Source: Pseudovirgaria hyperparasitica (Eukaryota). From it: 64,000 bases of DNA. This document shows, piece by piece, positions 5-22,736 of this stretch. A model generated the notes under the pieces. It was not told the DNA's origin. It ran no database searches and saw only the letters and a program-made list of their open reading frames with translations. Within the stretch, counting starts at the first letter, position 1. Each line of letters opens with the position of its first letter. Position numbers and translations under genes: made by a program. Location of the stretch: NCBI GenBank assembly GCA_010093815.1, contig ML996571.1. The stretch is one strand, 5' to 3'.

Positions 5-586
5 GTGCCCATCCCCGCCTTCCAGCCCGACGGTGATACAGACTGGCGCATAACCTCTCTTCCTCCTCTGCCGGACTGGGTCTCCATCACACGCCTCATC
101 AATCCTGCCGATGCACTCTACTACCATGCCGCGCTCATGATCACATTCCCATCCTCGCAGTCCCAGAAACCTGCCGACTCGCCAATATCCTCACCTGTCG
201 ACATGCCCGCGGAAGCGATCATATACACACCGCACGGCATATCCGCGTCCGCGATCCCAGACCTGCGCTCTTTGTCGCCTCCGATCCATACGCTCGCGCT
301 CTTACACGGACTACACGCCATCACGCTCACGAAGCAGAAGCTGAATCTAGGTGCTCACAACGGGTTGCAGGCGCAAAGGAAGCTGCAATCGCGATATTGG
401 ATTGGTACACATGACGAAATCAAAAGAGGCGGTGGGATCGTGGCGAGGTTTCTGAGACGGAAAGTGATTACGCTGCAGGAGGCGGTGGAGCAGGAGAAGC
501 AAGGGATGAAGGAGGAGGAGCGAAGGCAGTGGGCAGATGTTGGGTTCTTGGAGGTGGAGAATGGTGAGAGTGTGTTGCTGAGATGA
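5..586 (+). CDS. 3' part of a conserved fungal hypothetical protein (possibly metallo-beta-lactamase-like superfamily); 5' end lies outside the window
   Basis: Open frame from the window edge to TGA at 584-586; motifs LLHGLH, LNLGAHNG and YWIGTHDE..GGG resemble a recurring fungal uncharacterised family (recognised from memory, not searched). Confidence 0.6.
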   Translation: MPIPAFQPDGDTDWRITSLPPLPDWVSITRLINPADALYYHAALMITFPSSQSQKPADSPISSPVDMPAEAIIYTPHGISASAIPDLRSLSPPIHTLALLHGLHAITLTKQKLNLGAHNGLQAQRKLQSRYWIGTHDEIKRGGGIVARFLRRKVITLQEAVEQEKQGMKEEERRQWADVGFLEVENGESVLLR

Positions 587-2370
587 CGGGGACGTAGAGA
601 TATAGATGTGCATAATACAAGTATCAGTAGCAAGCTGAAGGAGCATAATTCGTGATTGACTGCTCATGTTGTATTACTATGCACGCGTGCGGCGCAGTAA
701 TACCCAGATCTTCACTGTGTACTGTAGCTAGCTGTGCAAACGGGAAGATCCGTTGGGTGGGTGCAGGCTCGGCGTATACGCAGCGTTGGGATGGCAGTCC
801 CGCGTATATCTCAGCATACCAGCGCACAAGAGGGCACTTGGAAAGCCAGGCAGGTATAGACGACGAGATCAACAACCCATATCCACCCACCCATCTTCCC
901 CGCCGATTTAAGCGACTTTCAGCGGGCACAAGGCGGCGACGGCGGGTGGTGCTTTGATGCTTTAGAGTACATTGGTGCTTTGGTGCCTTTGGTGCCTGTG
1001 CTAAGGTGTGCTAAGCGTGCTAAAAGTGTCTGTGGAGTCGACGGGAGGGCTAAAATAGGCTGAGAGACCGTCGCAGATCAATCAGTTCTCACACTCTCAG
1101 CCTCACTTCTGGCAATATCATTCGCTATTTGCTATCGTGGTCGACTGTGCTGGAGATGATCGGTGGAGATGGAGATTTGCAGACAGTAACTAGGTTGGAA
1201 GGTGGAGTGGCGCACGATGTGATTGATGATCAACACAACGGCGGCAGAGTTTGTTCTTGTCGATTTAGTGCTGATGGCTGTACCTAGCTAGCTAATTAGC
1301 CACCCTGGATGAGCGTCGTAAGCATTACAGTACCTTTGAAGAGGACTATTATGGTACCTACATAGCTATCGTTCATGTAAGATACAGATACCTACCTGGT
1401 AATTAGGTAGTAACTATGAACCAACCTAACTAAGCAGTGGGGGATATGTGGACTCATCTCCATCTGATCCTTGAAGGCCCCCCATATCATCCGCGACTCT
1501 CCGCTTGGTGCATTTCCACACCAGCATCCAAACAATCCCAAACAATTCGCTGGTCGCGCCATGACCATACTATACACCTTGTATATCATCCAATTGTGTT
1601 ATTGTGCGTCCCGTCTGCCCCATGCTATGTCTCATATCCCTGCCTGCCTGCTTGCTTACCTCCACCTCCACTACGAGTTATGTATGCTCCGTGGCTTGTA
1701 TACTTTGTATCGGGCGCATGGCAATCTTTCTCGCGTGGGCTGATAGGCAAATAACAGCAGGATACCGGTAGCAAAAGCCATCTAATCAAAAACCGCGTAG
1801 CTATCCTCGGACCAAACTCCTCGAGGACGACGCCAATAAAGTGACAGCGGAACGTGTTCAAGTGCAGCCTTTCTTCTGCAGGGAAACCCTCACACTTAAC
1901 CCGAGACGGCCTGGCTAATAAGCCTATTCGTGTTCTAGACTGTTGTTTTTTGCGCTGATTTCTATTCCCTTTTTCCAGTCTCGACCTTCCCGCAACGCTA
2001 ATCTCTCCCATCAGCCCGCTATGTGAACTTGGTTCACTACAGCTTCCCAGCTTCCAGCTACCACTCAACCTCCACTCCACGTCTATTCGTGCTTCCACGT
2101 CCTTTACCTTTTCTTTCAGCTTCATGCACCTTGTCCAGTCCATGGAAGGTGGTCTCTTGTAACTTGCATCTCTACACATCCATTCCCGTGATTACCTCTC
2201 CTTGCCACTCCTTCTGGGCTGACTGTCTTCCCAATCGAAGCTACTGGCCCTGCCAGCCCATCCGGGCTCACCACCCCGAACCATAGCAACAGCAACCATA
2301 GCATTGCTTCTTGCATTTTACTTCGTTTTGTTGGCCTCTGAGTGGGACATGTCCTCGAAATCTGGCCAAT

Positions 2371-5300
2371 ATGCGCATTCCTATAAGGGAGCAGCTGGGT
2401 CTGCTTGTGATACTGGCAGCTCTGATCGCTTTGGCTGTTGTAGCTTCAGCAACATGGGTGCGTACAACTTCACTCGAGACCCAACGTGGATTGCAGATTG
2501 TACTGACCTCTGCACAGATCACGACGCGTAACTTCGTGCTCGAATTACGGTGTGTTTGAAATGACCGTCTTTCACAAGAAAGTATCCGCTGACTCTTACA
2601 CGCAGAGCTACTCGGCTGTCTCTTACGGCCTCTCTCAAGGCTGCGCAACTGACCTCGAATCTTGCTCTTATGCAATCACAAGTTCGCTCTGCTGCTAGTC
2701 GACTTGTCATTCAGAGCGCACTACAGCGATACAACAATGGCAACAACACTGTGGAGAATTGGACTCGTACGAGAGACGACTTAGCTGCAGTCTTTCAAGG
2801 TGGAGGCCAGAGTGGACTTTTACTACAGGCTCGAATATTCGCGAAGAACTCAACAGGTCCCGCCGGCTCAAACACGACTCTTGTTGAAGCTACCGGAGTC
2901 GACGTGGTGGATACTGTGCAACTACCCGGCCTGAACGCAGACGGCAGCTCCATATATCTCGGCTCTAATGGCAGTTCTGGCTATCCGTCGAATCTCTATC
3001 CCAATCTCACTTACCGGAATGACGGGGAGAATGCCAACACAGGCGAGTTTGTGACAGTGGATGGCACGCCTATGGATTCGACAGATACTCTTTTGCTGGG
3101 ACCATGGCAACTCAATGAGACCGTCTCTTTGCTTTCAATCACACTTCCTATCATCAATAATACATCCGCTTCTGACATGCTCGGTTGGCTTACTGTCGTA
3201 TTGGATGGCAGGCTGATTGGAGACGTCGTCGCTGCTAGGGAAGGGCTCGGAGACTCTGGAGTAACACTTCTTATTGGACCTAACACGCAGACCAACAGGT
3301 TTCCCAGTGGTATCTTATCAGATAGCAACAATGGCAATCCACCAGATAATGTGGAGGTTGTGTACAAGCTCGCACCGACAAGGCGTCAAGATGTTGGCGC
3401 TCGACACACTGCTCGCGATTATGGCAGCTCCAGAATGCCCTTCAGCCTAGACAGTTTTCCTGCAGCCAAAATTGGATTTACCAGCAACCTAACAACTCTG
3501 GATAACGCCAACAACGCTGGCAGCGCGATATCTACTCGTAATGAGGAAGGCTTGAAAGTGTCTGTAGGCTACGCTACACCCAGCACATCCCTTGTGGACT
3601 GGCTTCTTGTGGTAGAGCAATCACGAGCTGAAGTTTGGGAACCTATAAACCGCCTCCGAACTGTCCTCCTAGCCTGCATATTTGCCACACTAGGCGCTAT
3701 GCTTTTATTCGCTGTCCCGGCGGCCCACTACGCTAGTCGACCGATACGACGGCTCAGAGATGCTACCAAGCAAACAGTCACACCTCCTGGATATGGCCCC
3801 TCGAGTCCCGCGAGTAGTCCATCATTCCTTGATGACGACGTGAGCCCAGGGCATGTTGCAAAAGAAGGCTTCTTCGCAGCTTGGAAGAGATTTTCTATCA
3901 GAAGAGACGCGGACACGGATGGTCAGCAGGATGAAGGGAGACGAACTTTTCGCATTCCCGGAAAAGTGAAAGACCGGAAACACTACATCAATGATGAGCT
4001 CACAGACTTGACAAGGACCTACAATGAGATGTCAGACGAGCTAATGATGCAATATGAAAGGCTTGAGGAGAGAGTCGCTCAGCGTACAGCTGAGCTGGAA
4101 TTAAGTAAAAAGGCGGCCGAGGCAGCGAACGAAAGCAAGACGCTATTCATCGCGAACATTTCGCATGAACTCAAGACTCCATTGAATGGGATCATGGGTA
4201 TGTGCGCTGTGTGTATGTCGGAGGAGGATCCAATCAAGCTTAAAAGATCCCTCGGGATTATTTACAAAAGTGGTGACTTGTTGCTGAATCTCCTTACTGA
4301 TCTGTTGACTTTCAGGTAAGTCTTTCAAAACCGTTGGGCGCATTCGAACTTGTGATCTAACATTTCTTCACAGCAAGAATCAGGTCGGTCAGCAATTAGC
4401 GCTCGATGAGAAGGAGTTTAGGCTTCGCGATATCAGCACCCAGGTGCTGGCCATCTTCGAGCGCCAGGCGAAAGAGAACCATATAGATCTATCGATCAAC
4501 CTGGAAGGACCCCTCGAGGCAAATACGGACCATACGGGCATCGTTAACGAAAAGCTTTCATACGGTCCTTTTGGTCTCGGCAAGGTGAAAGACATGGTCT
4601 TGTACGGTGATCAGCATCGCATCCTGCAAGTATTGATCAATTTGGTGTCTAACAGCCTGAAATTCACACCCAAACACGGGAAGGTCATAGCAACGATACG
4701 GTGTGTCGGCGAAAGTAACATACCCATTAGTCGACACGAGTCGGTCCACTCTCGCCTAAGATCAGCGAAATCCAAGGTCCCATCTTCGGCAAATTCATCT
4801 ACAGGAACATCTCGGCTGGTCAACACTGCAACTGCAAACGAGATAAACGCATTGCAGAAGCCATCAGTATATGCGCAAATTCTAGCAAGCGAGCTGAATG
4901 CACCACCACCTGCTGGTCGTGTGCTTGAATTTCAGTTCGAAGTGACGGATACCGGACCTGGGATTCCGGAACATCTACACCAGCGGATTTTCGAGCCTTT
5001 TGTGCAAGGTGACCTTGGCCTAAGCAAGAAACATGGAGGCACGGGTCTAGGTCTGAGTATCTGTTCGCAGCTAGCAGGGCTTATGAGGGGCCATGTTGAT
5101 GTGTCCAGTACCCTCGGTCAGGGCAGCAAGTTTACCATGACGATACCACTGAGACACCTTACCAGTGGTGCCGACAGCACGTCTGGCTCAAGTATCGTGT
5201 CTTTCGTACCTCCTCGAACAAGAAGTCTTGACCGTGGCCCCGATACGAGCACCGACAACGACGATGCGAGTTCCATGCGGTCGTTCGCATCAGCACCAAG

Positions 5301-6033
5301 TCCATCGAACGGTCCCGTAGCTTTCGATACGGATACGCAGCCACGACTCGTGGGCCTAAGTCAACCTTTCTTTGCGTCCAATGTGCCACTAGAATCGCCA
5401 GATTCGCAACCAGCAGCCATGGAACGCGTAAAGGCTGAAGCCTCTCATCGAATGGCCAAGGTCAAAGTCCTTGTGGCTGAGGACAACAAAACCAACCAGG
5501 AAGTGGTACTAAGGATGCTGAAGCTCGAAGAGATCTACGATGTTACAGTGGCCAAAGACGGCCAAGAGGCTCTAGATCGAGTGAAGGAAAGTATGGAGGA
5601 CCACAAACCGTACAGCTTGATCTTCATGGATGTGCAGATGCCGAACCTCGACGGCTTAGAGTCCACACGTCTCATCCGTAAGACTGGCTATACAGCACCA
5701 ATTGTTGCTCTCACTGCCTACTCGGAAGAGTCCAATGTCAAAGAATGCATCGCGTCAGGCATGGACTACTTCCTTTCGAAGCCCATCCGGAGGCCACAGC
5801 TAAAACAAGTCTTGAAGACGTACTGTCCCACAATTCAGGAAGAGGACGAAGAGCGATCGATGTCATCAAGCTCAGCAAAAGTCGATTCGCCCGCGGAGGA
5901 ACGCGGCCGTGGAAGCTCGTCTCCACCAAAGCCTGTCCTCGGATCTGTAGATTTTGGGGCCACGAATAGTACCAACACTCGAGATGGACCGATCACACAT
6001 CCCTCACGAGAGCCCTCTCCAAAAGCATCCTGA
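2371..6033 (+). CDS. SLN1: Membrane-bound hybrid sensor histidine kinase/response regulator, Sln1/TcsB type (4 exons)
   Basis: ATG 2371 MRIPIREQLGLLVILAALIALAVVASATW (TM1); introns ~2458-2517, ~2550-2605 and 4316-4373; N-glycosylation-site-rich extracellular domain; TM2; H-box FIANISHELKTPLNG; N-box INLVSNSLKFT; DTGPGI; GGTGLGLSI; receiver LIFMDVQMPNLDG. Confidence 0.92.
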
Positions 6034-11304: not shown

Positions 11305-11999
11305 CCTCGAGACTTGACTACTGGCCGGTAGATAGTAAAGCAAAAGTCCCAAGTTTCATCGTAAGCTTTGAGGAGGCGATCTGGACCTCGTATATGTACG
11401 CGCAGGGCATCAAGCACACTGGCAGCCCCATAACGGCGGATGCAGGCACCAGAGAATCTGACAGCGTCGAGATGTCGTTTAGCACCAGCATTAGAGTGGG
11501 TAAAGTGTAAGCGTGTGGAGCAGAGTATTTAGAAGAGTAAGCTCTAGTGTAAACATGCCGGGATAGACCCATGTCGACATGAAGAGGTTAATTTACAGGT
11601 CTGGGGCTGAGCTGCACCCATAGCCATGACCGGGTTGGTTCATGTACTACAAGCAGATTCCACAAAGAGTGATGGCCTTGTAAGTTGACTTCGTCAGAGT
11701 GGCTATGATGGTATCAAGACGAAGTTGGGATTCGGCTCGAGTAAATGGCTCTGCTCTCGTGTGAACAGTCATGGAAGTGGAATGCAAGACATATCTAGGA
11801 ACCATCTGCCCCATTCGATCATCTTACGTGATACCTCAGCCAGCATTTTCGCCAACCCGTCAGTTATGGATACTGGATATGATCATGGAGCAGAAAGCAG
11901 AGATCAGAAGGCCATTGGATGATTTCGACAGGGAGCGGAGGGGGAAGACCTCGGCCGACGCCGTAATGGCCGCTTGTTGAGTGACGAGCGGGATGCGGG

Positions 12000-12115
12000 A
12001 TCCGTCGTTTTCCTAGAACCTGACGAGCTTGGCACTCGCATGTCGCGCGATGTCTCCCCCACCCAAATTTACGTGAGACGGACATATTTTGGCATTTTAT
12101 TATATACTCGTCGCC
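12000..12115 (+). repeat. Left inverted repeat (116 bp)
   Basis: Reverse complement of 15396-15511 with 3 mismatches, all transitions and all within the inner 44 bp (12072-12115). Confidence 0.95.
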
Positions 12116-12245
12116 ATATGAGGTTTTAATATACGTATACTATCGAATATTAGTTAATATACTTAGTGTTAAGTCTCCACGTATTTTTTTTACCTATATA
12201 CCCTCTATGAGGTTAAAAAAACCCGCTCGAAGCGTTTAATTTACT

Positions 12246-14039
12246 ATAGACGCGTCAACTAAACCTCCTCCTCCTCCTCCTCCTCCTCGTTAATATAAAT
12301 CTACTACTAAATTAATAGAGGCAGCTACGGCGAGGGTAATAGCGAAGAAGTAGGCTTATAAACGTACTACGGCGTCGAAAAATCCACGGATTATCGATAT
12401 TTCTACGCCTCCTAAGGCTATATCTCCTCCTTCTCCTCCTCCTCCTCCTCGTCGTTCCTCTACTCCTCCTCCTTCTACTCCTTCTACTCCTCTTGATTTA
12501 TCTTCTCCTATGAATTAAGTAAATAGTAGTTAGAATAAGGTTATAGAGGTTAAGGAGGACGTGGAGGAGACATATAAGATACACGTGTCCTAGAGATTAC
12601 GTGTTAATAGGAAGAACGAGGCGGCTAATAAACTTACTACTATTCCGCGATATACTTTTAAACGCGAGGTATATAAGGGTACTATTAATAAGATAATTAG
12701 TACGAAGCTTAATATAGATAACTAGACCTTCGAGACTTATTAGATTATATATAGTCTTAGTATAAGGAAGAAGTAGAGAAGGACACTTACTATTAATGAC
12801 TGGTCGATTATTAGCTAGGAGAGACTCTATATAGTTATAGATGATATCTACTCGCTTGCTAGTACTAAGGATAAGGTTATTATAGTTACCTTTAAGGATA
12901 GCGTGAAGTGCGAGTCGTAGGCTAAGAAACCTTAGCTATCTTAGTAACGTATTCGTCATCACGACTCTTCTACGCTATTACTAAATATAGGGCTTCGAAG
13001 TTCGCTAAATATAGAGAATCTCTAAGGGCGTGCCCGAGTAATATATAATAAGGCTTAGTAGAGGAAGGATGCCGGTCTAAAACGGATCGAGATAATTAGC
13101 TTAATAGAGGTAATCTATCGCTATATAGACGTCGGTTATAGTAATAAGCAAGGCCACTACTTTATTATTCTATTCTTATTAGGACGTCTTTATTATAAGA
13201 TTAAACACGCGTCGATAGAGCCGTAGGCATACGCTATTACTATCGGTATTACTAGCGCCTCTATTAAAGATCCTCCTATAGGTATAATAAAGTAACTTAT
13301 ATCTAAGCCCTATAAGAGAAAGTTAGTAAAGAAGCTAGATAATACTAGGTAAGTCGATATTACTACCCTCGTAGTAGAGTATAAAGCTAAGAAGCTAAAA
13401 GCAGCCCTTAATAACATCGATCGTTATAAATAGAATAAAATTAATAAGGCTAAGGAATAAGCTAAGCGTCGACGATTCGACTAGTAGATAAGGTAGACTT
13501 AGCTTTATTAGGCTAGATTTAATCCTATATTCGGAGCACGTATGCCTCTATATCCGATAACTATACCACCGCTATATATATTACCCTTACCGACTCGTGA
13601 GGTTAATAGTTAACGCCCTCGTAAGATTAATAGTTAACGCCCTCGTAAGGTTAATAGTTAACGCCCTCGTCTATCGACACTACTAGATTCGATAAATCCC
13701 GCCCCGTATAGTAGTCCTACTTAGCTAGAACTCTATTAGGCTAATATCGTTTAATTAGTACTTAAATGGCGACTAGTAAAGGAGACTTATACGAGGACGA
13801 AGGATAGAATTAGGTTACTCCGCGAGTACGCCGTTAAAAACTATTATTAGTATAGATAAGTCAAAGAGATTACTCGTCCTAGGACCGCTTATTACGAGAC
13901 GGCGAAGTCGTATAGCGTCCTATTAAGTATTATCCTAGATGCTCGTCGCTATCTTCATGAGTATAAGGGTAGTCTTAAGGTAATAGAATAGGAGGAAGCA
14001 GCGAGGGCACTCTATAGGCTTGCCTCTAGCACTATCTAA
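12246..14039 (+). pseudogene. RIP-degraded second ORF of the transposon (~598 codons, unknown function, possible Cys/His motif)
   Basis: The same frame at both ends, ATA (<ATG) 12246 to TAA 14037-14039; the stops read are TAA/TAG, explicable from CAA/CAG/TGG. Poly-Pro N-terminus, segment YRYIDVGYSNKQGHYF..YYKI...*AYAI..ASIKDPP, and C-terminal SVLLSIILDARRYLHEYK. Confidence 0.72.
13594..13670 (+). repeat. 24-bp tandem repeat x3.2 inside the transposon second ORF
   Basis: Unit CTCGT(G/A)AG(G/A)TTAATAGTTAACGCC; copies differ only by G/A; in-frame 8-codon repeat. Confidence 0.9.
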
Positions 14040-14169
14040 GTTATTTAAGTAGAGATATCGCGGTTTTCCTATAGTACACGTGTATATATAATTAATTTCA
14101 TCCTCTATATTACTATATTCAGCTATATACACGAGGGTAATATAACGTATACGCGAGGGCAACGTGATA

Positions 14170-15279
14170 TTAGTCAGTAAATATTATCGTAAAAAGTCGA
14201 CTAATATACCCAACTTCCTTAGTAAAACCTCTCTTCCTACCACGTCTAAATTACTTTAGATTATGGATAATACGTTCCCGTAGCGTTTCATTAATATACT
14301 AACTATTAGTAGTATATATAAAGAAGCGGAGAGTAAATTAATCGTAGCAGCTATCTATAAAGGCGCGGTATAAGAACTCCTTAAAGTTAACTAACTACTC
14401 ACGTGTATATAGATACTACCTTTAAATCCACGCCTTTAGTACCGCCTATACCATCTTAATAGGGTTATAATTAGGCGAATAAGGCGGTATATATCGAAGT
14501 GTATAGCTAGCTATAGTAACCATAGGAGCGACGTCGTCGTTAGTGTGAAGAGAGAGATTATCTATTACAATAACCATCGCCTAATTAGGGTACTTTTCTT
14601 ATAGGCTAGGGAATAGGTATACCTCTAGCTAGTCGATAAACTCTTCCTTATTAAAGTAACCCTTCTTAACTCTATAGGTAACGAATCTATTAATAGAGAT
14701 AGCGCCACACGCGCTGTACGTCTAGCCATAATTAATACGAGTAGATTACGTAGGTATCTCTCCACGAGGAGCCCTACCTCGCCTTCTCTACCCTATTTTC
14801 TTATTAAAGATAACCTTATTAATAAATATAAGGCGCTTAGTAGGTAACTAGGTAATATCCTCACGATAGGAGCGACGTGTAACCTTAGAGCGGTTAGAAC
14901 TAATACGCTTTAATAGCCGCTAAGTCTATCCTCGCTTTATTAACTACTTTAAGATAGTAGACGGTAAGGTTACTATCTTGAGCTCTTTATATAGCCATTT
15001 AGCCATCTTATTAAGGTATAGCTATCCCTCCTAGAGTAGGTATTCGAATAGTAGGCCTATAATATAATCGCTAAGGATAGTCTCACGACCACGCGTCTTT
15101 ATAGATTAAGGCTTATTCCGCTAACTATAGGTATCTAGGTTATACCTCACGCGCTAGACTATTAATATAGATACTTAAGACTTCTCTATAGTAATAGTAG
15201 TTAGCACGTCGTGCTCGAGGAGGAAGTTAATTCGATGATAGGTACTCGCGTCGTACGCTCTACTAGGTAGGCCCACTAT
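14170..15279 (-). pseudogene. RIP-degraded Tc1/IS630-like DD34E transposase (3' end approximate)
   Basis: Continuous frame from ATA (<ATG) 15279: HTH-like N-terminus, LIFINKVIFNKKIG*RRRGRAPRG, MVIVIDNLSLH, then exactly 34 residues from the second D to NPI-K(<E), then MV*AVLKAWI. Confidence 0.9.
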
Positions 15280-15395
15280 CTATATACGCAACTATAAGCC
15301 TAAAACACTAGAAATATATAAAATAAGGCCTATACTAACTCCTAGATGGCCTTAAAAACCTACCGAATACGTATATTCGGTAATTACGACGCGTG

Positions 15396-15511
15396 GGCGA
15401 CGAGTATACGATAAAATGCCAAAATATATCCGTCTCACGTAAATTTGGGTGGGGGAGACATCGCGCGACATGCGAGTGCCAAGCTCGTCAGGTTCTAGGA
15501 AAACGACGGAT
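15396..15511 (-). repeat. Right inverted repeat (116 bp)
   Basis: Reverse complement of 12000-12115. Confidence 0.95.
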
Positions 15512-16024
15512 TCGCCAGCGGGCGCTTAAGCTTAACTAACTCTCGCTCTCGCTCTGCACAGCCTCGTGTCGGAAGTTGCCTATATTTAGTCAGTCGTGCA
15601 GGTTTCTACAATATCCATCTCCATGCGGCCTTGCATCTAAGAGCCGCAGTGTATACTTGACAGTAGAATCGTCATTTTCGTCTTCAGAACGAGATCTTGT
15701 AGATTCTACTGGTCTTAGTCAGCTCTGCGAAGATTCACTGCACTAGTGGTGAGCATGTCGTTCCTTTCATCCTCGTCGGAGCATCTATATGCTATGAGAT
15801 AGTGGAAGTACTAATCAACGGGCTCGCTCGGCGGGAAACTCGAATCATGTGTCTTTGAGGGTCCCACCAAAGTGTGGATGGACCACGATTACGGCCCGAA
15901 TCGTCAGACATCGAGTCAGCCATTCAGAACAGAGTCTGGGCATGTCACATCCATCGTCCTGTGTTCGCTGAGAATGGATTAGTTTTGGATTGATAAATAA
16001 ATGTAGCCTGTGTATAGGCTCCCT

Positions 16025-18218
16025 TCAATCCGTTTTAATGGCGCTACGTTCTGTCAGCACTGGCGATACTGGAGCTCCAAGCGAACGACTTACCTATATA
16101 TTCTCCTCACAAATGCATAAGATGCCAGAAACCCCACTGTCCCAGTAAGAAGACTGTATAGGGCACACGCCAAAAAGCTGTAAGCAAAGAAAAGCACCCC
16201 TGACACAAAGCCAGAGACGTGCAACTTCGTCATGTAGTACCACCCGGAGTACAGGAATATCCATATTCCGCTGGAAGCTCCGACAAGAAAAGACTGCCAC
16301 CACCAATGATAGTTCTGCTTTCAGATTAACGGTTTGAGAAGTGATGCCCTGGATCTCACATACCTCCGCATTCAGCTGAACATATGTCGCCACGATGCTG
16401 ATTTCCATTACTGTAATCAAAAGGACGATCGACACTACTGTCAGAAAGCCAAACACATAGTAGTACCCGGTCTTATCTTGCCACAAACTCTTGAACACGT
16501 ATAGCAACTCAATGAAGATGACACCAAACGGAATTATACCGGCGAGTAAGATGGTACGCGCACTCGCGATGTACCAATCCGCTTTGGGTAGCTGTCGAGG
16601 AATCGCATTAGTCTTAATCGGATGGTCCCACGCCCCAACATTGTTGTACCCATACCAACCTCCTACATATACCAGAGGAAGTTGGATGAGGAGCCATAGG
16701 CAGAGTATTACAATCAAGGATCCGAAAGGAATTGCTGTGCTCGAAGCTTGAGCCCAAGCGAAGAGGTTCAAGATAAAGACAATCAAGAACAGGAGACCTG
16801 GGAGTGCTAGTCCCGTCACCAGAACATTCTTCTTCCACTGCTTGCCGCCCAAAGTCTTGTAAATCCGCGCCGAATAGTATCCCGAGAACACGCCAGCGAA
16901 AACAAACAGGCCGATACCAAAGCTGACGTACCCTCCCCGGAAGCTAGGATTTAGGACGCCAAAGCAGCTCAAGGAAAGCAATCCGATTGTCATAAATATC
17001 AGCTGAGCACCGGAACCTACAAGCGGTGCGAGGATCCCGCCATAAGCCGGTGGACGGAAGACATCGCCGTGTACTAACTTCCAGCCAGTGGTGTCCTCGA
17101 GAATCTCTTCATCGGCCTGGTCTTCCACAGCCTCCAGGTCTAAGGGTTGGCCGAGGAGTCCTTTATCTACGCCGCCATGATTCGACTTACGCTTCCCTTC
17201 GATTCCGGCCTGTATGTCCCCACGGACGGTCCGCGCAACAATCACGGCAACGACTGCTGTCAACAGCCCCAGCACAACGAGCGAGTTGATGATTGCAAAC
17301 CAATGAACTCTCGAGCTATCATCGGCGGCAAAATACATGTCCCATCGGTTTCCCCATTCCAAACTATGGTCTTCCCGGAAGTATACCGAGTACGAGAAAG
17401 GTATTGTCAAGGTCCGGTCATCAGGACCTTTCTGGTTCACTGGATCGGCTCCATTCATGACCAGTTCCATAGCCTTTCCAGTCCACATGACAGTTTCGTT
17501 ACCCCTGACTTGTCCCGTCACGCTGGCATCCACGCTTTTTGGGTAGATCTCAAACCCCACTATAACTTTTTTGCCTGCGTCCCCGTCTCGTCCTGGTGCT
17601 TTCGTATACCGAAATACCATGGTGACATGGTTGTTGAGGAAGAATCTCGGCTCAGTCTCCTTGTTATCAACCCATCCCATCTTGAATCCTGATGCATAGT
17701 ACGCTCTTGACTTATCCGTTGTTACAAAACGCGTCGCCCCCGGTAAGTTGTCCACAATCCATTCTGCAACGTAACCATCTCTTACTAATTCTATCGCTTT
17801 TTCGAGTGATGCCACGTCCACATCTCTCTTGCATAAAAGATTGAACTCATCATCCACGTTCATTCGCAAACGATAGTCTGAAAGGGATACCCTATCTCCT
17901 CGCAATATTTCTCCAAGATTCAACGATCGGGACTCTCCGCTGAGGGTGTGGCCACCACGTAATTCTTGCACAGGCGGGCAGATGAAAGGAAGTTCGGCAT
18001 ACGCATATTGAAGCTGGGTATTGTCTGAGTAGACTTTATTGACGAAAAGAGGAATGACTTCGCCGTCACCGTAGCTTTGGATCGTCCAGCCTATGGTCCT
18101 CGCGTGAGCACTGGCAATGAAGTGAAACACAGGAACATGCCATACCTGGGATGTAGAAGCTCTGGGTGAGAGTGGCAAAGCATAACAGCGATGCATAGAG
18201 CCGGGACTCCGTGCGCAT
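16025..18218 (-). CDS. Transmembrane 9 superfamily (nonaspanin/EMP70) protein, 4 exons
   Basis: ATG 18218 MRTESRLYASLLCFATLTQSFYIPG|WTIQSY; motifs SLNLGEILRGDR, WIVDNLPG, VHWFAIINS, GWKLVHGDVFRPP; after introns near 16315-16363 and 16044-16093 it reads NYHWWWQSF...RRIYSAIKTD* (KxD C-terminus). Confidence 0.93.
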
Positions 18219-20084
18219 CTTTACGCACAATTAGGCTAGATGTTCGTGCCCGATTCTTGTGTAGCCTGAAGATGAAAATGTGACATAGATCCGAATGTCG
18301 TGTAATCCAGTTTCGTAAAGACAATCAAGCAGCAGGCCCAGCTCTCCGGTGATTAGATTTAGACAACGTGCGCAAAAATGTGTCCATAGCTGAGGAAGTT
18401 CGTGATGATGCCTCCCTACCTACCCTGCAGCTGTCGCGCTGCATTTCGTGGCGCAGGTACTAACCTTAGCGTCCTTTAATCAGATCAATCCTATTTAGCT
18501 TAGAACAGCCACAGATCAAATAATACCTTCTCATAATTAATGCTTGGCCAGTACGATCCATCAAACTTCAATTTCATCGTCATGCGCACATGCTTGCTAG
18601 CTCGAATGCCATTCAAACGAAGAATCGAAATATCTATTCTCCTGTGTGCGTTGGATGTTGTGTTCTCTTATTGGCAGAAGGTGCAATAGATAGAGAGCTA
18701 AATCTCTGGGTCTCGCTCCGCATATCTGATATTGAGACTCAACGAATGCGTCCGTAGTCCGATTGTCATATTGCAGCGAACCTGATATGGCGCCAGCGCG
18801 AGACACTTCGAGGCATTCTTCCCTAGTCGTGACTTGCAAGATTATACGTAGCCCTAACCCGCCTCACATCCGGTCTTCCGTCCGGATCCATCACACTGCC
18901 ACCTAAGATACTTTTTTTCTTCGTTACTATAGCAAACGAGCACGGCGACCAGGTTGATACAAGCGCCAGTTCCGAAAATATTCATCTCGCCGCGTGTGAA
19001 TCCGTGTCAAGGTCTCAACAGCAGCCGCCTGACCGAGGCATTTAGACGGTTGTATGAACATGGAACTAGCAAAAGCAGATAATTGTCAAAGCAGAAGGGG
19101 ATGACAATGAGTCTGTTCAAGAAGAAAACATAGATTGAGCTCTCTCGTCTAGTGATACTTGTTCATCGAAAGCTTTTTTTATCAGCATCAAAGATGAACA
19201 CTAAGTGGCTATGTCTTCCGTGACATTCCATTTCCACGCTGCTGGATAGTCTCGGCGATGACAAGCTTAGGATCCGTGTCAGAACCGAGTAATAATATCT
19301 CGACTACCCATTGGTAGCGAAATTCTTTAGCGCTGTGTCAGAAAAAAACAATTCATGACCTCCTGTGAACACTCTAAAATTTCGAAAATTGACTTTTGGA
19401 ACCATGCGACCTCAAAGCAGGCAACTGTCATTCTTTGCGCGCGACTCTAGAAAGGGATTGAGTACAAAGACATGCATTTCATTACTTCATACCAGCCTAT
19501 CAATGACGAATGGAGAGTGACCAGAAACAGGTCTTTCTAGTATATGCATAGTGAGGAATTGAAAACATGGTATTACCTTCTTCGTTCTACAGATTACGGA
19601 TCAAAGTCATCATTAGAAGCATCTTGTTATAAAGAAATGTCGTTGGCTAGAACGGAAGCGCAGATACCCGAGACGTGGTAGTAAATACTATTACTTATCT
19701 AGCGAAATATAAATATGATCTAGCTGATGGATTCCTATAGGTCATCTCTCAGAAACTGAGTTGATCAGTTCTATAGGGAGATATTTAATATGATAATACC
19801 TACCTCTCTCTACTCGTCTAAAGGCATAATTCTAAAGTACGAATGATCTTAAAAAAAATCTATGCCATCATATGATTTGTGTCCGAAAAGCTGGGTGCTA
19901 CCCTCTCTATTGGTTCCATGGTAGGGGATAGAAAATATGAGATCAGAAGCCGCCTACAATATGCCTCGTAGGTTGAATTATTTGCTATCTATGCGTGAGT
20001 TTCCGAATACGGGTACGCGGCTCAGATGTGTGTCCGCCCTGATCCGTGAGTTAGGAATAGCATATGTTTCTGGTCCGGTCGCCT

Positions 20085-21267: not shown

Positions 21268-22062
21268 TCAGAATATTTGATCAAATTGAGCTTGCATGGA
21301 TTCGTATTGTATGTCCCGAAGTCTGTTTGACTCCTGATTAACCAATACATGATCTTGGAGAGCATGTATCACATCGTCCATGCAGTTGTAAATTCCAATC
21401 CAGCAGCCTTGTATTACCTCACGCAGCGGTATCCCCTTCAAGACTGGGAATTTGCCCTCAGAATACCGTTGTCGAACGTCGCACATCCGATTGGGCGAAG
21501 TTTCGAGATCATAGTGAGGAGGCCTGCCCGTTATGATTTCGTACATCGCACATCCGAATGCAAATATATCGGTTTGTGTGCTTATTGCGGGTGTGCAGAC
21601 TCGGTAGCTGAACCATTGGTAACAAGACGTAGCTTCATGTCCATCAACGCTGCTACCCTCGAAATCGATGAACTTTAGCCAGTGGTTGACAAGGATCATG
21701 TTTGGCACTCCAACATCGGCGTGTATTATACCTTTGTTATGAATGTGTTGCAACGCGACTGCAGCTTGTTGGATCCAGCGTACCTTTTGCTCGATGTCTG
21801 TTGTAACATTTTCTGCCTCACTATTCCGAATTACGTTTTGTAGAGGTTGACCTCGCTCCAGGATGAGTCCGTTGTTTTCTATCTCTAGTAGCCTCACGAC
21901 ATTTGGGTGGGGGCCGAGTCGAGAAAAGACTTGGCATTCTACATCAATACCTTCAGCGAAGTACTTCTTCAAAACTCTTCGTTCATCCAGCGCGTAAACG
22001 AGGCTGGATTTGCCGGCAGCGATACAATTGTGATTGGGATGTGGTGGGGATATTAGATCCAT
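21268..22062 (-). CDS. Compact intronless non-RD protein kinase-like protein
   Basis: IAAGKSSLVY (Gly loop), VLK, HPNVV, IIHADVGVPN (catalytic loop), DFEG, TDIFAFG, YEIITGRPP; kinase domain only. Confidence 0.85.
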   Translation of the reverse strand: MDLISPPHPNHNCIAAGKSSLVYALDERRVLKKYFAEGIDVECQVFSRLGPHPNVVRLLEIENNGLILERGQPLQNVIRNSEAENVTTDIEQKVRWIQQAAVALQHIHNKGIIHADVGVPNMILVNHWLKFIDFEGSSVDGHEATSCYQWFSYRVCTPAISTQTDIFAFGCAMYEIITGRPPHYDLETSPNRMCDVRQRYSEGKFPVLKGIPLREVIQGCWIGIYNCMDDVIHALQDHVLVNQESNRLRDIQYESMQAQFDQIF

Positions 22063-22736
22063 TCGTAGCCAAACGGGTGTAGGTAGATTGTTCGTTAATT
22101 ATATGGTTAGACGAAAGGTGGAATGAAGAAGTAGAGAGAACGATGACAATCGTGAGGTCCGAGATCCGAAAATTTGCCGAGTACTCTGCTGACGCCTGCG
22201 GCTTGGTAAAAAAAAAGTCGTGGGAATAATAGTTTTCAACTTAGCGCCCATATAAAGTAATATTACTTTATAGAATACTTTTATTCTTACTTTCTAATAC
22301 TACTAAACAATAGTCTAATCATAATTTTTAGGTACGTCATATATAATTTGTAGACAGCCAAGAAGTGCGGGTGCACCTCAGGCACAAAAAGTGGCCATCC
22401 GCGTATTTGTTGTATAATAAGGTCTGGCGGCCCTGGCCCAGTACTGTCAGCATTTCTTATCACCGGAGTATATCGAGCATCCCCATTTTCTCGAAAGCCA
22501 CGATTAGACCTAGCACCAGGTCTCTTAGTAGCCTAGCTTAGAATCTCGGTCTCACACCTACGTAGCTACCCTCAAGAAGCCTCTTAGGAGGGTACGGGTT
22601 AGGATCGGGTTAGGAGGGTTCCGGGTAGGCTATAATTAAGAGAGCGAAGGGTGCTTGCGCCCACCACTGTTGTAGGTTGTGGTTACCTATATTAATATAC
22701 ATTGTGGTAGCTGCAACAATCATGAAATCGTCTACA

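Follow-up and report, generated by a model that had tools for sequence, protein, structure and literature searches.

Between positions 12000 and 15511 of a 64,000-nt stretch of Pseudovirgaria hyperparasitica (contig ML996571.1 of assembly GCA_010093815.1; this whole stretch is the window), we found a 3.5-kb Tc1-like transposable element that carries two convergent genes between 116-nt terminal inverted repeats. One gene encodes a DD34E transposase. The other, which we call ORF2 (open reading frame 2), is a real former gene that was destroyed by repeat-induced point mutation (RIP). We consider it very likely that ORF2 is a conserved, integral partner gene of a clade of Tc1-like elements and not a one-off capture. 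The window copy, though dead, reveals a two-gene Tc1-like lineage with a conserved partner protein. The initial annotation, which was made from the DNA sequence alone, had already proposed two tail-to-tail genes inside inverted repeats, and this arrangement was borne out: the arms are 116 nt each and the two stop codons lie 130 nt apart. The parts of the element are as follows.

12000..12115, plus strand: left terminal inverted repeat (GC content 0.49, TA/AT ratio 0.70, without RIP mutation; contigs of other copies diverge just before 12000)
12116..12197, plus strand: leader from the repeat to ORF2, strongly RIP-mutated (12116-12206 has GC 0.26 and TA/AT 1.46; unlike the other end)
12198..14039, plus strand: ORF2, the second gene, inactivated by RIP, with 37 TAA/TAG stops in about 610 codons (from periodicity, composition, a codon model, and RIP-aware alignment)
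12259..12510, plus strand: N-terminal low-complexity region of ORF2, basic and rich in Pro, Ser, and Thr, with (CCT)n runs, followed by an acidic patch (same layout in the relatives L006, L010, and L016)
13119..13274, plus strand: conserved core of ORF2 (from alignments to L008, L016, L006, and L010)
13594..13670, plus strand: in-frame tandem repeat of three 24-nt units (eight codons each)
13752..14030, plus strand: C-terminal stretch of ORF2, which aligns with the relatives' SAM-like domain (collinear with the C-termini of L008 and L006)
14040..14169: spacer of 130 nt separating the two convergent stop codons
14170..15279, minus strand: RIP-inactivated DD34E Tc1-like transposase, 370 codons with 24 TAA/TAG stops
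15280..15395, minus strand: leader from the right repeat to the transposase, RIP-mutated
15396..15511, minus strand: right terminal inverted repeat, without RIP mutation (loose contig ends behind 15511/15512)

The transposase proved to be what the initial annotation had called it, a DD34E enzyme on the minus strand from 15279 to about 14170. This frame matches DDE_3 in Pfam (PF13358) with E = 2.4e-19 and 70.1 bits, where the cut-off is 28.6. Its alignment to intact relatives runs over the full length, with 33-34% identity, and when compared to at least 45 relatives, the frame is about 35% identical over roughly 300 amino acids despite RIP. The catalytic positions read N/D/K in the window and D/D/E in the relatives, with 34 residues between the second and the third. 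The alignment is gapless between the DN...NPIE columns, and the two catalytic changes are G-to-A changes of the RIP type. All 24 stops in the 370 codons are TAA or TAG, mostly at positions where the relatives have W, Q, or R. The RIP-mutated transposase thereby served as a positive control for the effects of RIP on a gene.

ORF2 has the corresponding marks. The plus frame from 12207 to 14039 contains 37 stops in 611 codons, a density of 6.1% (6.5% in the transposase), and these are all TAA or TAG, with zero TGA. The frame is nearly devoid of Gln (0.2%) and Trp (0.3%), as expected if RIP turned their codons into stops. Codon-position periodicity is strong across the whole frame (chi-squared = 113, p = 4e-22), with a pattern like the transposase's, and each quarter of the frame is periodic alone (p = 2e-17, 2e-4, 0.016, and 0.005). 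Therefore, one unbroken register extends over about 1.8 kb. The load of RIP is also equal in the two genes, while both repeats are spared: GC content, TpA/ApT, and (CpA+TpG)/(ApC+GpT) are 0.38, 1.71, and 0.22 for ORF2; 0.38, 1.83, and 0.26 for the transposase; and 0.49-0.50, 0.70, and 0.79-0.86 for the inverted repeats. A plus-strand frame at 12246-14039 had been proposed beforehand. Its unbroken register and its exclusively TAA/TAG stops were upheld, but the start is probably further upstream, at 12207 (ATG) or at 12198 (ATA, which is ATG in one less-mutated copy, read by eye).

The choice of strand cannot be made from stop codons. The RIP-type stops had been taken to mark the plus frame, and all 37 of them are indeed TAA or TAG, but the in-register antisense frame has fewer (32), and its longest open run, of 112 amino acids, is the sole fragment in the ORF track. 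Periodicity by itself is also blind to strand. These points would fit a coding strand that runs in the transposase's direction, with the plus frame as an open antisense shadow. We nevertheless assign ORF2 to the plus strand because of its amino acid composition, a codon model that takes RIP into account, and homology. The plus frame (Leu 9%, Lys 10%, Glu 4.5%) resembles the sense frame of the transposase, whereas the antisense frame (Leu 17%, Arg 14%, Lys 3.5%) resembles the transposase's antisense. For the codon model, we simulated RIP on host ORFs from the window and used these for training. The model prefers the plus strand with a margin of 40.2 log units, and the first 100 codons, which are Pro-rich, contribute 30 of these. 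As controls, it gave +9.6 for the transposase and correctly oriented 16 of 17 host ORFs when each was left out in turn. The family homology described below belongs to the plus frame, and TGA occurs in the antisense register of two less-mutated contig fragments (read by eye). Minus-strand coding is therefore highly improbable.

Other copies of the element are found in the same organism. We aligned contigs from four public runs (X1-X4), from two samples, to positions 11500-16000 with a likeness of at least 80%. In the best run, summed depth was about 300 in the flanks, 300-3700 in the bins of ORF2, and 1250-5700 in those of the transposase, and up to 9-10 distinct contigs deviate from the window at single ORF2 positions. 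Most of the differences are of the types A>G (153 places in X1) and T>C (155 places in X1), so a G or C that is kept in other copies is A or T in the window copy. The points of departure for contigs with differing flanks are 12000 and 15511/15512, and an 882-nt contig from the second sample spans the 3' ends of both ORF2 (13793-14056) and the transposase (14266-14619). The whole two-gene unit is multi-copy in this organism.

The copies were compared at 40 of the 669 differing positions, and fragments of less-mutated contigs were read by eye. Six such fragments are all open in the plus frame, while two of them have stops in the other two plus frames. The window's stop at 12531-12533 is an Arg codon in a less-mutated copy, and of the two adjacent stops at 13056-13061, one reads CAG there. 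The earlier proposal that this frame was once open agrees with these six fragments. The copies also vary in the number of 24-nt units at 13594-13670: the joints skip 48 nt, or 69 nt with 21 nt between. Separately, one derivative has a deletion in ORF2 from 13270 to 13461, with 190 nt replaced by 21 nt (a net loss of 169 nt, out of frame). All four runs, and so both samples, contain it at a depth of roughly one copy, and it is an old defective copy common to both strains.

The transposase gave access to intact relatives. Its RIP-mutated sequence led to a fragment (P0001) and from there to 114 DDE_3 proteins, few of which come from named organisms (Paraphaeosphaeria, Westerdykella, and Gomphillus). 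An alignment of 21 DDE_3 proteins then gave 80 metagenome loci (with names such as L006), and we sought inverted repeats around each transposase. Three of these elements are compact and have one gene (L001 8062-9465, L003 9819-11179, and L004 984-2376; 1361-1404 nt). Three others are long elements within inverted repeats (L010, 2755 nt; L016, 3059 nt; L040, 3475 nt), and in each of them the strand opposite to the transposase holds a second gene, split into two to four ORF pieces. BLAST and hidden Markov model (HMM) searches with these pieces against the six-frame ORFs of the 80 loci added L006, L008, L026, and L007.

In all seven of these loci (L006, L007, L008, L010, L016, L026, and L040), the ORF2 homologue lies downstream of the transposase and is convergent with it, and in three (L010, L016, and L040) it is enclosed by the inverted repeats. 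A one-off capture, with homologues elsewhere, had been named in advance as the outcome that would undo the proposal; instead, the homologues are convergent with DDE_3 transposases in 7 of 7 loci (all of them fetched via the transposase). The best-preserved example is L006, which has a single intact ORF of 722 amino acids that ends 129 nt from the transposase. The two pieces in L010 are joined by a 38-nt GT..AG intron, with the frame kept. Of the 80 loci, 25 have at least 600 nt past the expected end of the transposase; six of these contain ORF2 and 19 do not. L007 has less downstream sequence and shows the gene's end only. An exact look-up of seven stop-to-stop ORF pieces in protein clusters found none of them.

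The inverted repeat of L016 (9322-9462 and 12240-12380; 141 nt, 99% identical) reaches into both genes, and the transposase and ORF2 frames have the same 24-residue read-through leader ahead of the first Met. The inner edge of this repeat is where both genes of L016 begin, each preceded by the same leader, which suggests that each repeat drives the adjoining gene, with the same expression signals at both ends. L026 and L040 form an AT-rich subgroup (GC 0.26-0.29) whose ORF2 has an extra N-terminal Cys-rich stretch with several CxxC pairs (L040 around 3200-3344 and L026 3324-3623, minus strand); the other family members are without it.

Across the family, ORF2 has a basic, Pro-rich N-terminus, a poorly conserved middle, a small Cys/Cys/His/Trp core, and a predicted C-terminal SAM domain. 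The C-terminus of L026 scores above the Pfam cut-offs for SAM_1 (PF00536; 28.1 bits, cut-off 23) and SAM_2 (PF07647; 21.2 bits, cut-off 20.5), and L040 has a sub-threshold SAM match; Pfam found nothing else in the relatives' ORF2. We modeled a 247-residue piece of L010 with AlphaFold, using an 11-row family alignment. Residues 168-245 form five helices with a predicted local distance difference test (pLDDT) score of 94-97, and residues 21-88, the small Cys/His domain, form a beta-hairpin and helices with a pLDDT of 86-93. Foldseek with this model returned nothing at E <= 0.001, but its top weak matches are mostly SAM domains. In a VIA structure scan, SAM domains make up most of the top 50, with Z of 5.3-7.3, which is in the middling range. 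A profile of the C-terminal half of the family had no match among PDB sequences (best E = 0.98). Based on the Pfam and structure matches, we accept the C-terminal domain of the relatives as a predicted SAM-like domain. In the window copy, Pfam found no SAM match, and this part is linked to the domain by its collinear alignment to the relatives' C-termini only. The ORF2 product would be a SAM-domain protein of no described family.

Zinc binding by the Cys/His core, which had been suggested as a candidate module, stays putative because the invariant residues amount to two Cys and one His, short of four conserved metal ligands; the first Cys is present in four of six members. In the Atlas, L006 and the L010 piece adjoin clusters of 55-223 fungal "hypothetical proteins" with scores of 0.89-0.98. 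These clusters are labeled Basidiomycota, Ascomycota, and Mucoromycota, and SAM-domain clusters from Mucoromycota are nearby; we treat all of these as leads only. If these leads hold, there would be a modest consequence for fungal annotation: clusters of "hypothetical proteins" of about 200-500 amino acids may be ORF2.

We placed the elements on a quick maximum-likelihood tree of 61 transposase rows, from which 20 loci with matches under 150 amino acids were excluded. A single clade of 20 rows, with an SH-aLRT support (a Shimodaira-Hasegawa-like approximate likelihood ratio test) of 97, takes in all eight two-gene elements, along with eight rows that are without ORF2 and four that are uninformative. 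The remaining 41 rows have no ORF2, but only eight of them are informative downstream. Within the clade, the window groups with L006 (95) and L026 with L040 (99), and L026 and L040 are the most similar pair in ORF2 as well. The clade is diverse: its transposases are about 30-47% identical to P0002, and GC content ranges from 26% to 48%. The transposases of L001, L003, and L004, which lie on separate contigs, are nearly identical (branch lengths of 0.02-0.06), and this group has the look of a derivative that lost ORF2 and was active recently. Because one-gene relatives are found inside the clade, some elements, at least, can do without ORF2. The history is most simply read as a single old acquisition, followed by long co-inheritance and several losses.

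We linked the window's ORF2 to this family with a score that allows for RIP. For each window codon, we considered the residues that were possible before CpA>TpA or TpG>TpA changes, took the best by BLOSUM62, and recentred the scores on the customary expectation. (A first, uncentred version did not separate the frames, and the recentred score was used instead.) We then ran Smith-Waterman alignments against six family proteins, with 25 composition-preserving shuffles per protein. The scores for the plus frame were:

L008: 125 (z = 11.6)
L016: 113 (z = 10.1)
L006: 113 (z = 7.1)
L010: 78 (z = 4.8)
L026: 53 (z = 2.0, not significant)
L040: 39 (z = -0.7, not significant)

The five other frames scored 33-85, and the top shuffle for any protein scored 74. 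The plus frame was the best of the six frames for five of the six proteins. As a control, the transposase scored 629-638 by the same method, versus about 50 for shuffles. The alignments are collinear: with L006, nearly the full length is covered (window residues 6-605 versus 108-717); with L008, window residues 282-611 align to 26-296, which is outside the Pro-rich N-terminus; and with L016, residues 26-376 align to 7-347.

In the relatives, the conserved core reads C-x4-C-x-N-x4-C, then H-x-K, W-x2-A-I, G, and PP, and the family pattern can be written as C...C(F/Y)...H.(K/L)...W..(A)I...G...PP. The window has Y..Y....Y, Y, a stop, and PP where the relatives have C..C....C, H, W, and PP; its codons at C, C, H, and W are TAT, TAC, TAT, and TAG, and each is one canonical RIP step away. 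The motif that had been reconstructed by reversing RIP on the window alone (C-x4-C-x-N-x4-C...H...W..AI...PP) matches the core of L006, L010, L016, and L008 almost exactly. As a caveat on this match, at two positions where Cys is postulated, two other copies in this organism carry Tyr and Trp (read by eye). More broadly, RIP hides genes: homology of the mutated ORF2 surfaced only once the transposase had led to intact relatives.

Taking the anatomy and the family membership jointly, we think that the window's ORF2 probably belongs to this partner-gene family. The resemblance could instead be due to chance, in which case the 2-kb segment would be an unrelated captured gene or a nested remnant. 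Several results weigh on that side. Standard searches gave no link between the window frame and the family or any other protein: with stops read as X, ORF2 had no relative in a word-index protein search, and no match among 1.84 billion representatives with phmmer; tblastn against the 80 loci gave a best E of 0.28; Pfam found no match in six frames of the segment (the best was ATG16, with E = 0.06); and a plain HMM of the family did not match any of the window's six frames. The link depends on a custom RIP-aware score that was calibrated by shuffles and other frames only. This score lets codons choose among ancestors, which inflates matches; two of the six proteins were not significant; and both the window frame and the family have low-complexity stretches rich in Pro, Ser, and Glu. 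Within the family, pairwise likeness is weak outside the core, and the best cross-subgroup match is 39% over 59 amino acids (E = 4e-7, in a tiny database). However, three proteins beat every control (113-125 versus a maximum of 85), and the L008 alignment leaves out the Pro-rich N-terminus. Furthermore, the conserved family residues (C, C, H, W, and PP) are all present or one RIP step off, with matching spacing, and place, strand, and length are equal in the window and the relatives. Even the best plain tblastn match in 245 kb of loci, although non-significant, is to the same motif of L008. We consider a chance resemblance to be quite improbable.

If ORF2 does belong to the family, it might still be cargo: a gene of host or foreign origin that an ancestral Tc1-like element took up once (transduplication) and that plays no part in transposition, being either a hitch-hiker or acting on the host. 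A "sequestered" ORF in a Tc1/Mariner element of Pyrenophora tritici-repentis was interpreted as cargo, according to the available text of that report (PMC3538342). One-gene relatives in the same clade seem to be recently active without ORF2, the 41 more distant transposase rows are without it (8 informative), and no known transposition-related domain was found in ORF2. Some further points count against an integral partner gene. Eight of the 20 rows in the clade are without ORF2; the compact L001, L003, and L004 are nested next to L007 with very short branches; the tree came from a quick search, not a careful one; several relatives are decayed, with one in-frame stop in L008 and two in L016; and unlinked or host copies of ORF2 could not have been seen on contigs that were all fetched through the transposase. 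On the other hand, place, orientation, and domain order are kept across deeply diverged elements, and the domain-specific conservation and the intact 722-residue ORF argue for long-term selection within the element. Also, where a judgment is possible, namely for the pairing of L026 with L040 and that of the window with L006, ORF2 likeness tracks the transposase tree, and the start of both L016 genes at the inner edge of the same repeat looks like built-in expression signals. Overall, we view cargo as unlikely and favor an integral partner gene.

Some other searches bear on what ORF2 might be. It had no match among PDB sequences (best E = 0.33), and a metagenome scan gave 416 pattern matches, none of which were confirmed. 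An AlphaFold model of the RIP-mutated ORF2 alone was useless (mean pLDDT of 37.8). We rejected a diverged second transposase, since blastp against the 114 relatives was empty, and a nested foreign element, since the 2-kb segment is without inner repeats or matches to transposon proteins.

The element in the window is one dead copy of a two-gene DD34E cut-and-paste transposon that was killed by RIP. In a living copy, the transposase would bind the repeats and move the whole unit, and each repeat may serve as promoter or leader for the adjoining gene. The ORF2 protein may oligomerise via its SAM domain, while its basic N-terminus and Cys/His core may bind nucleic acid or chromatin. It could be a non-essential accessory protein or regulator of transposition. 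As a tentative proposal, then, we suggest that the ORF2 product is an oligomerising accessory or regulatory protein that elements can do without. Possible roles for such a SAM partner include bridging the two ends by polymerising, targeting insertion, or damping host silencing.

The repeat arms (12000-12115 and 15396-15511) are 97% complementary, and the likeness between the ends of the element ceases at their inner edges. In the window, ORF2 starts about 83-91 nt and the transposase 116 nt inside the respective repeats. The inner edge of the repeats is also the boundary of RIP, and the adjoining interior is saturated (GC 0.26-0.38, TpA/ApT 1.3-1.8). The repeat bins show the highest summed contig depth. 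One idea for the repeats' freedom from RIP is that there are short solo or miniature copies below the length threshold for RIP. Within the left repeat, position 12049 is G in the window and T in 6 of 6 contigs of X1 and 4 of 4 of X2; X3 has no cover there, and in X4, one contig (depth 10.8 of 868.8) reads T.

The target-site flanks in the window read g|A...T|t. In other copies, T precedes 12000 and A comes after 15511 or 15512, and the relatives L003 and L004 have TA at both ends of the element. We saw no second copy in the window: the repeat motif is confined to the two arms, and BLAST against the rest of the window was empty. Nor did we see a RIP signature elsewhere in the 64 kb. The element is intergenic, with no RIP leakage into the neighboring host genes. 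The flanking genes encode a hybrid histidine kinase (4309-6033), an EMP70 endomembrane protein (16094-18220), and a protein kinase (21268-22098).

Tc1/mariner is the textbook minimal transposon, a single transposase flanked by two repeats. Among fungal Tc1-like (DD34E) elements, the canonical ones (impala and Molly, for example) are 1.3-1.9 kb and have one gene. The element in the window departs from the canonical Tc1/IS630 form, as a second gene of 610 codons lies inside its repeats. Compared to the compact L001, L003, and L004 (1.36-1.40 kb), it shares the DD34E transposase of the DDE_3 family, the inverted repeats, and the clade, and it adds 2 kb with a convergent gene.

A partial precedent is a Tc1/Mariner family of Pyrenophora tritici-repentis, in which Manning et al. 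(2013) described an extra, "sequestered" ORF that lies between the inverted repeats (PMC3538342). In the portion of that paper available, the family has 46 copies, of which 31 have both ORFs, with transcripts; the authors called this transduplication and noted a comparable pair of ORF and transposon on the Alternaria bacterial artificial chromosome AM-BAC-13 (PMC3538342). Like the window's element, it is a Dothideomycete Tc1/Mariner element that, with its extra ORF, multiplied as a unit (PMC3538342), and the named relatives of the window's transposase are also from the Pleosporales, as is Pyrenophora. Unlike ORF2, the Pyrenophora ORF was found through Pfam matches to Osmo_CC (PF08946), as far as its description goes (PMC3538342). 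We found no match to PF08946 up to E = 10 in the window's ORF2 or up to E = 1 in L006 and the other pieces, using a Pfam release that differs from the one of 2013. Compared by description only, the extra ORF of 2013 may belong to the same family. Whether this architecture had already been described was raised at the outset, and the answer is mixed: we found no description of a convergent SAM-domain gene, but the Pyrenophora family, as partly seen in its report, is a partial precedent and somewhat lowers the novelty.

Extra genes are also described in the available text on IS630/Tc1 elements of ciliates (Anchois, Sardine, Thon, Tennessee, TBE, and Tec), which have one to three extra ORFs; Anchois is 3.6 kb (PMC3464196). 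By that description, these are from another kingdom and their extra ORFs encode hypothetical proteins or tyrosine recombinases, with no SAM domain reported there (PMC3464196). Tc1-OP1 of the yeast Ogataea is, in the accessible part of its report, a "non-classical" Tc1 with about 680 extra residues in a Ser/Pro-rich "domainX" (PMC9977792). As described, that extra part is fused to the N-terminus within one ORF, and the element is DD40E, whereas the window has a separate convergent gene (PMC9977792). No gene of this kind comes up in the available portion of a survey on cut-and-paste transposons in fungi (PMC5751038). In the literature that we covered, which was without subscription journals, Repbase, and Dfam, we came upon no Tc1 element described as having a convergent SAM-domain partner gene.

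If our reading is correct, then a conserved, convergent second gene in a diverged clade would add a two-component branch to the Tc1/mariner superfamily. Two-component DNA transposons are known from other superfamilies: PIF/Harbinger has a Myb-like ORF, and MuDR has the convergent genes mudrA and mudrB. The MuDR genes each start beside a repeat, and the second protein of Harbinger is a shown cofactor. More tentatively still, a fungal Tc1-like lineage, possibly across Ascomycota, Basidiomycota, and Mucoromycota, may be two-component in this sense, with the SAM partner as a cofactor or regulator comparable to Harbinger's Myb-like protein. Like PIF/Harbinger and MuDR, the element in the window pairs a transposase with a second protein, but the superfamilies and the second proteins are unrelated, and for the window the cofactor role is a guess.

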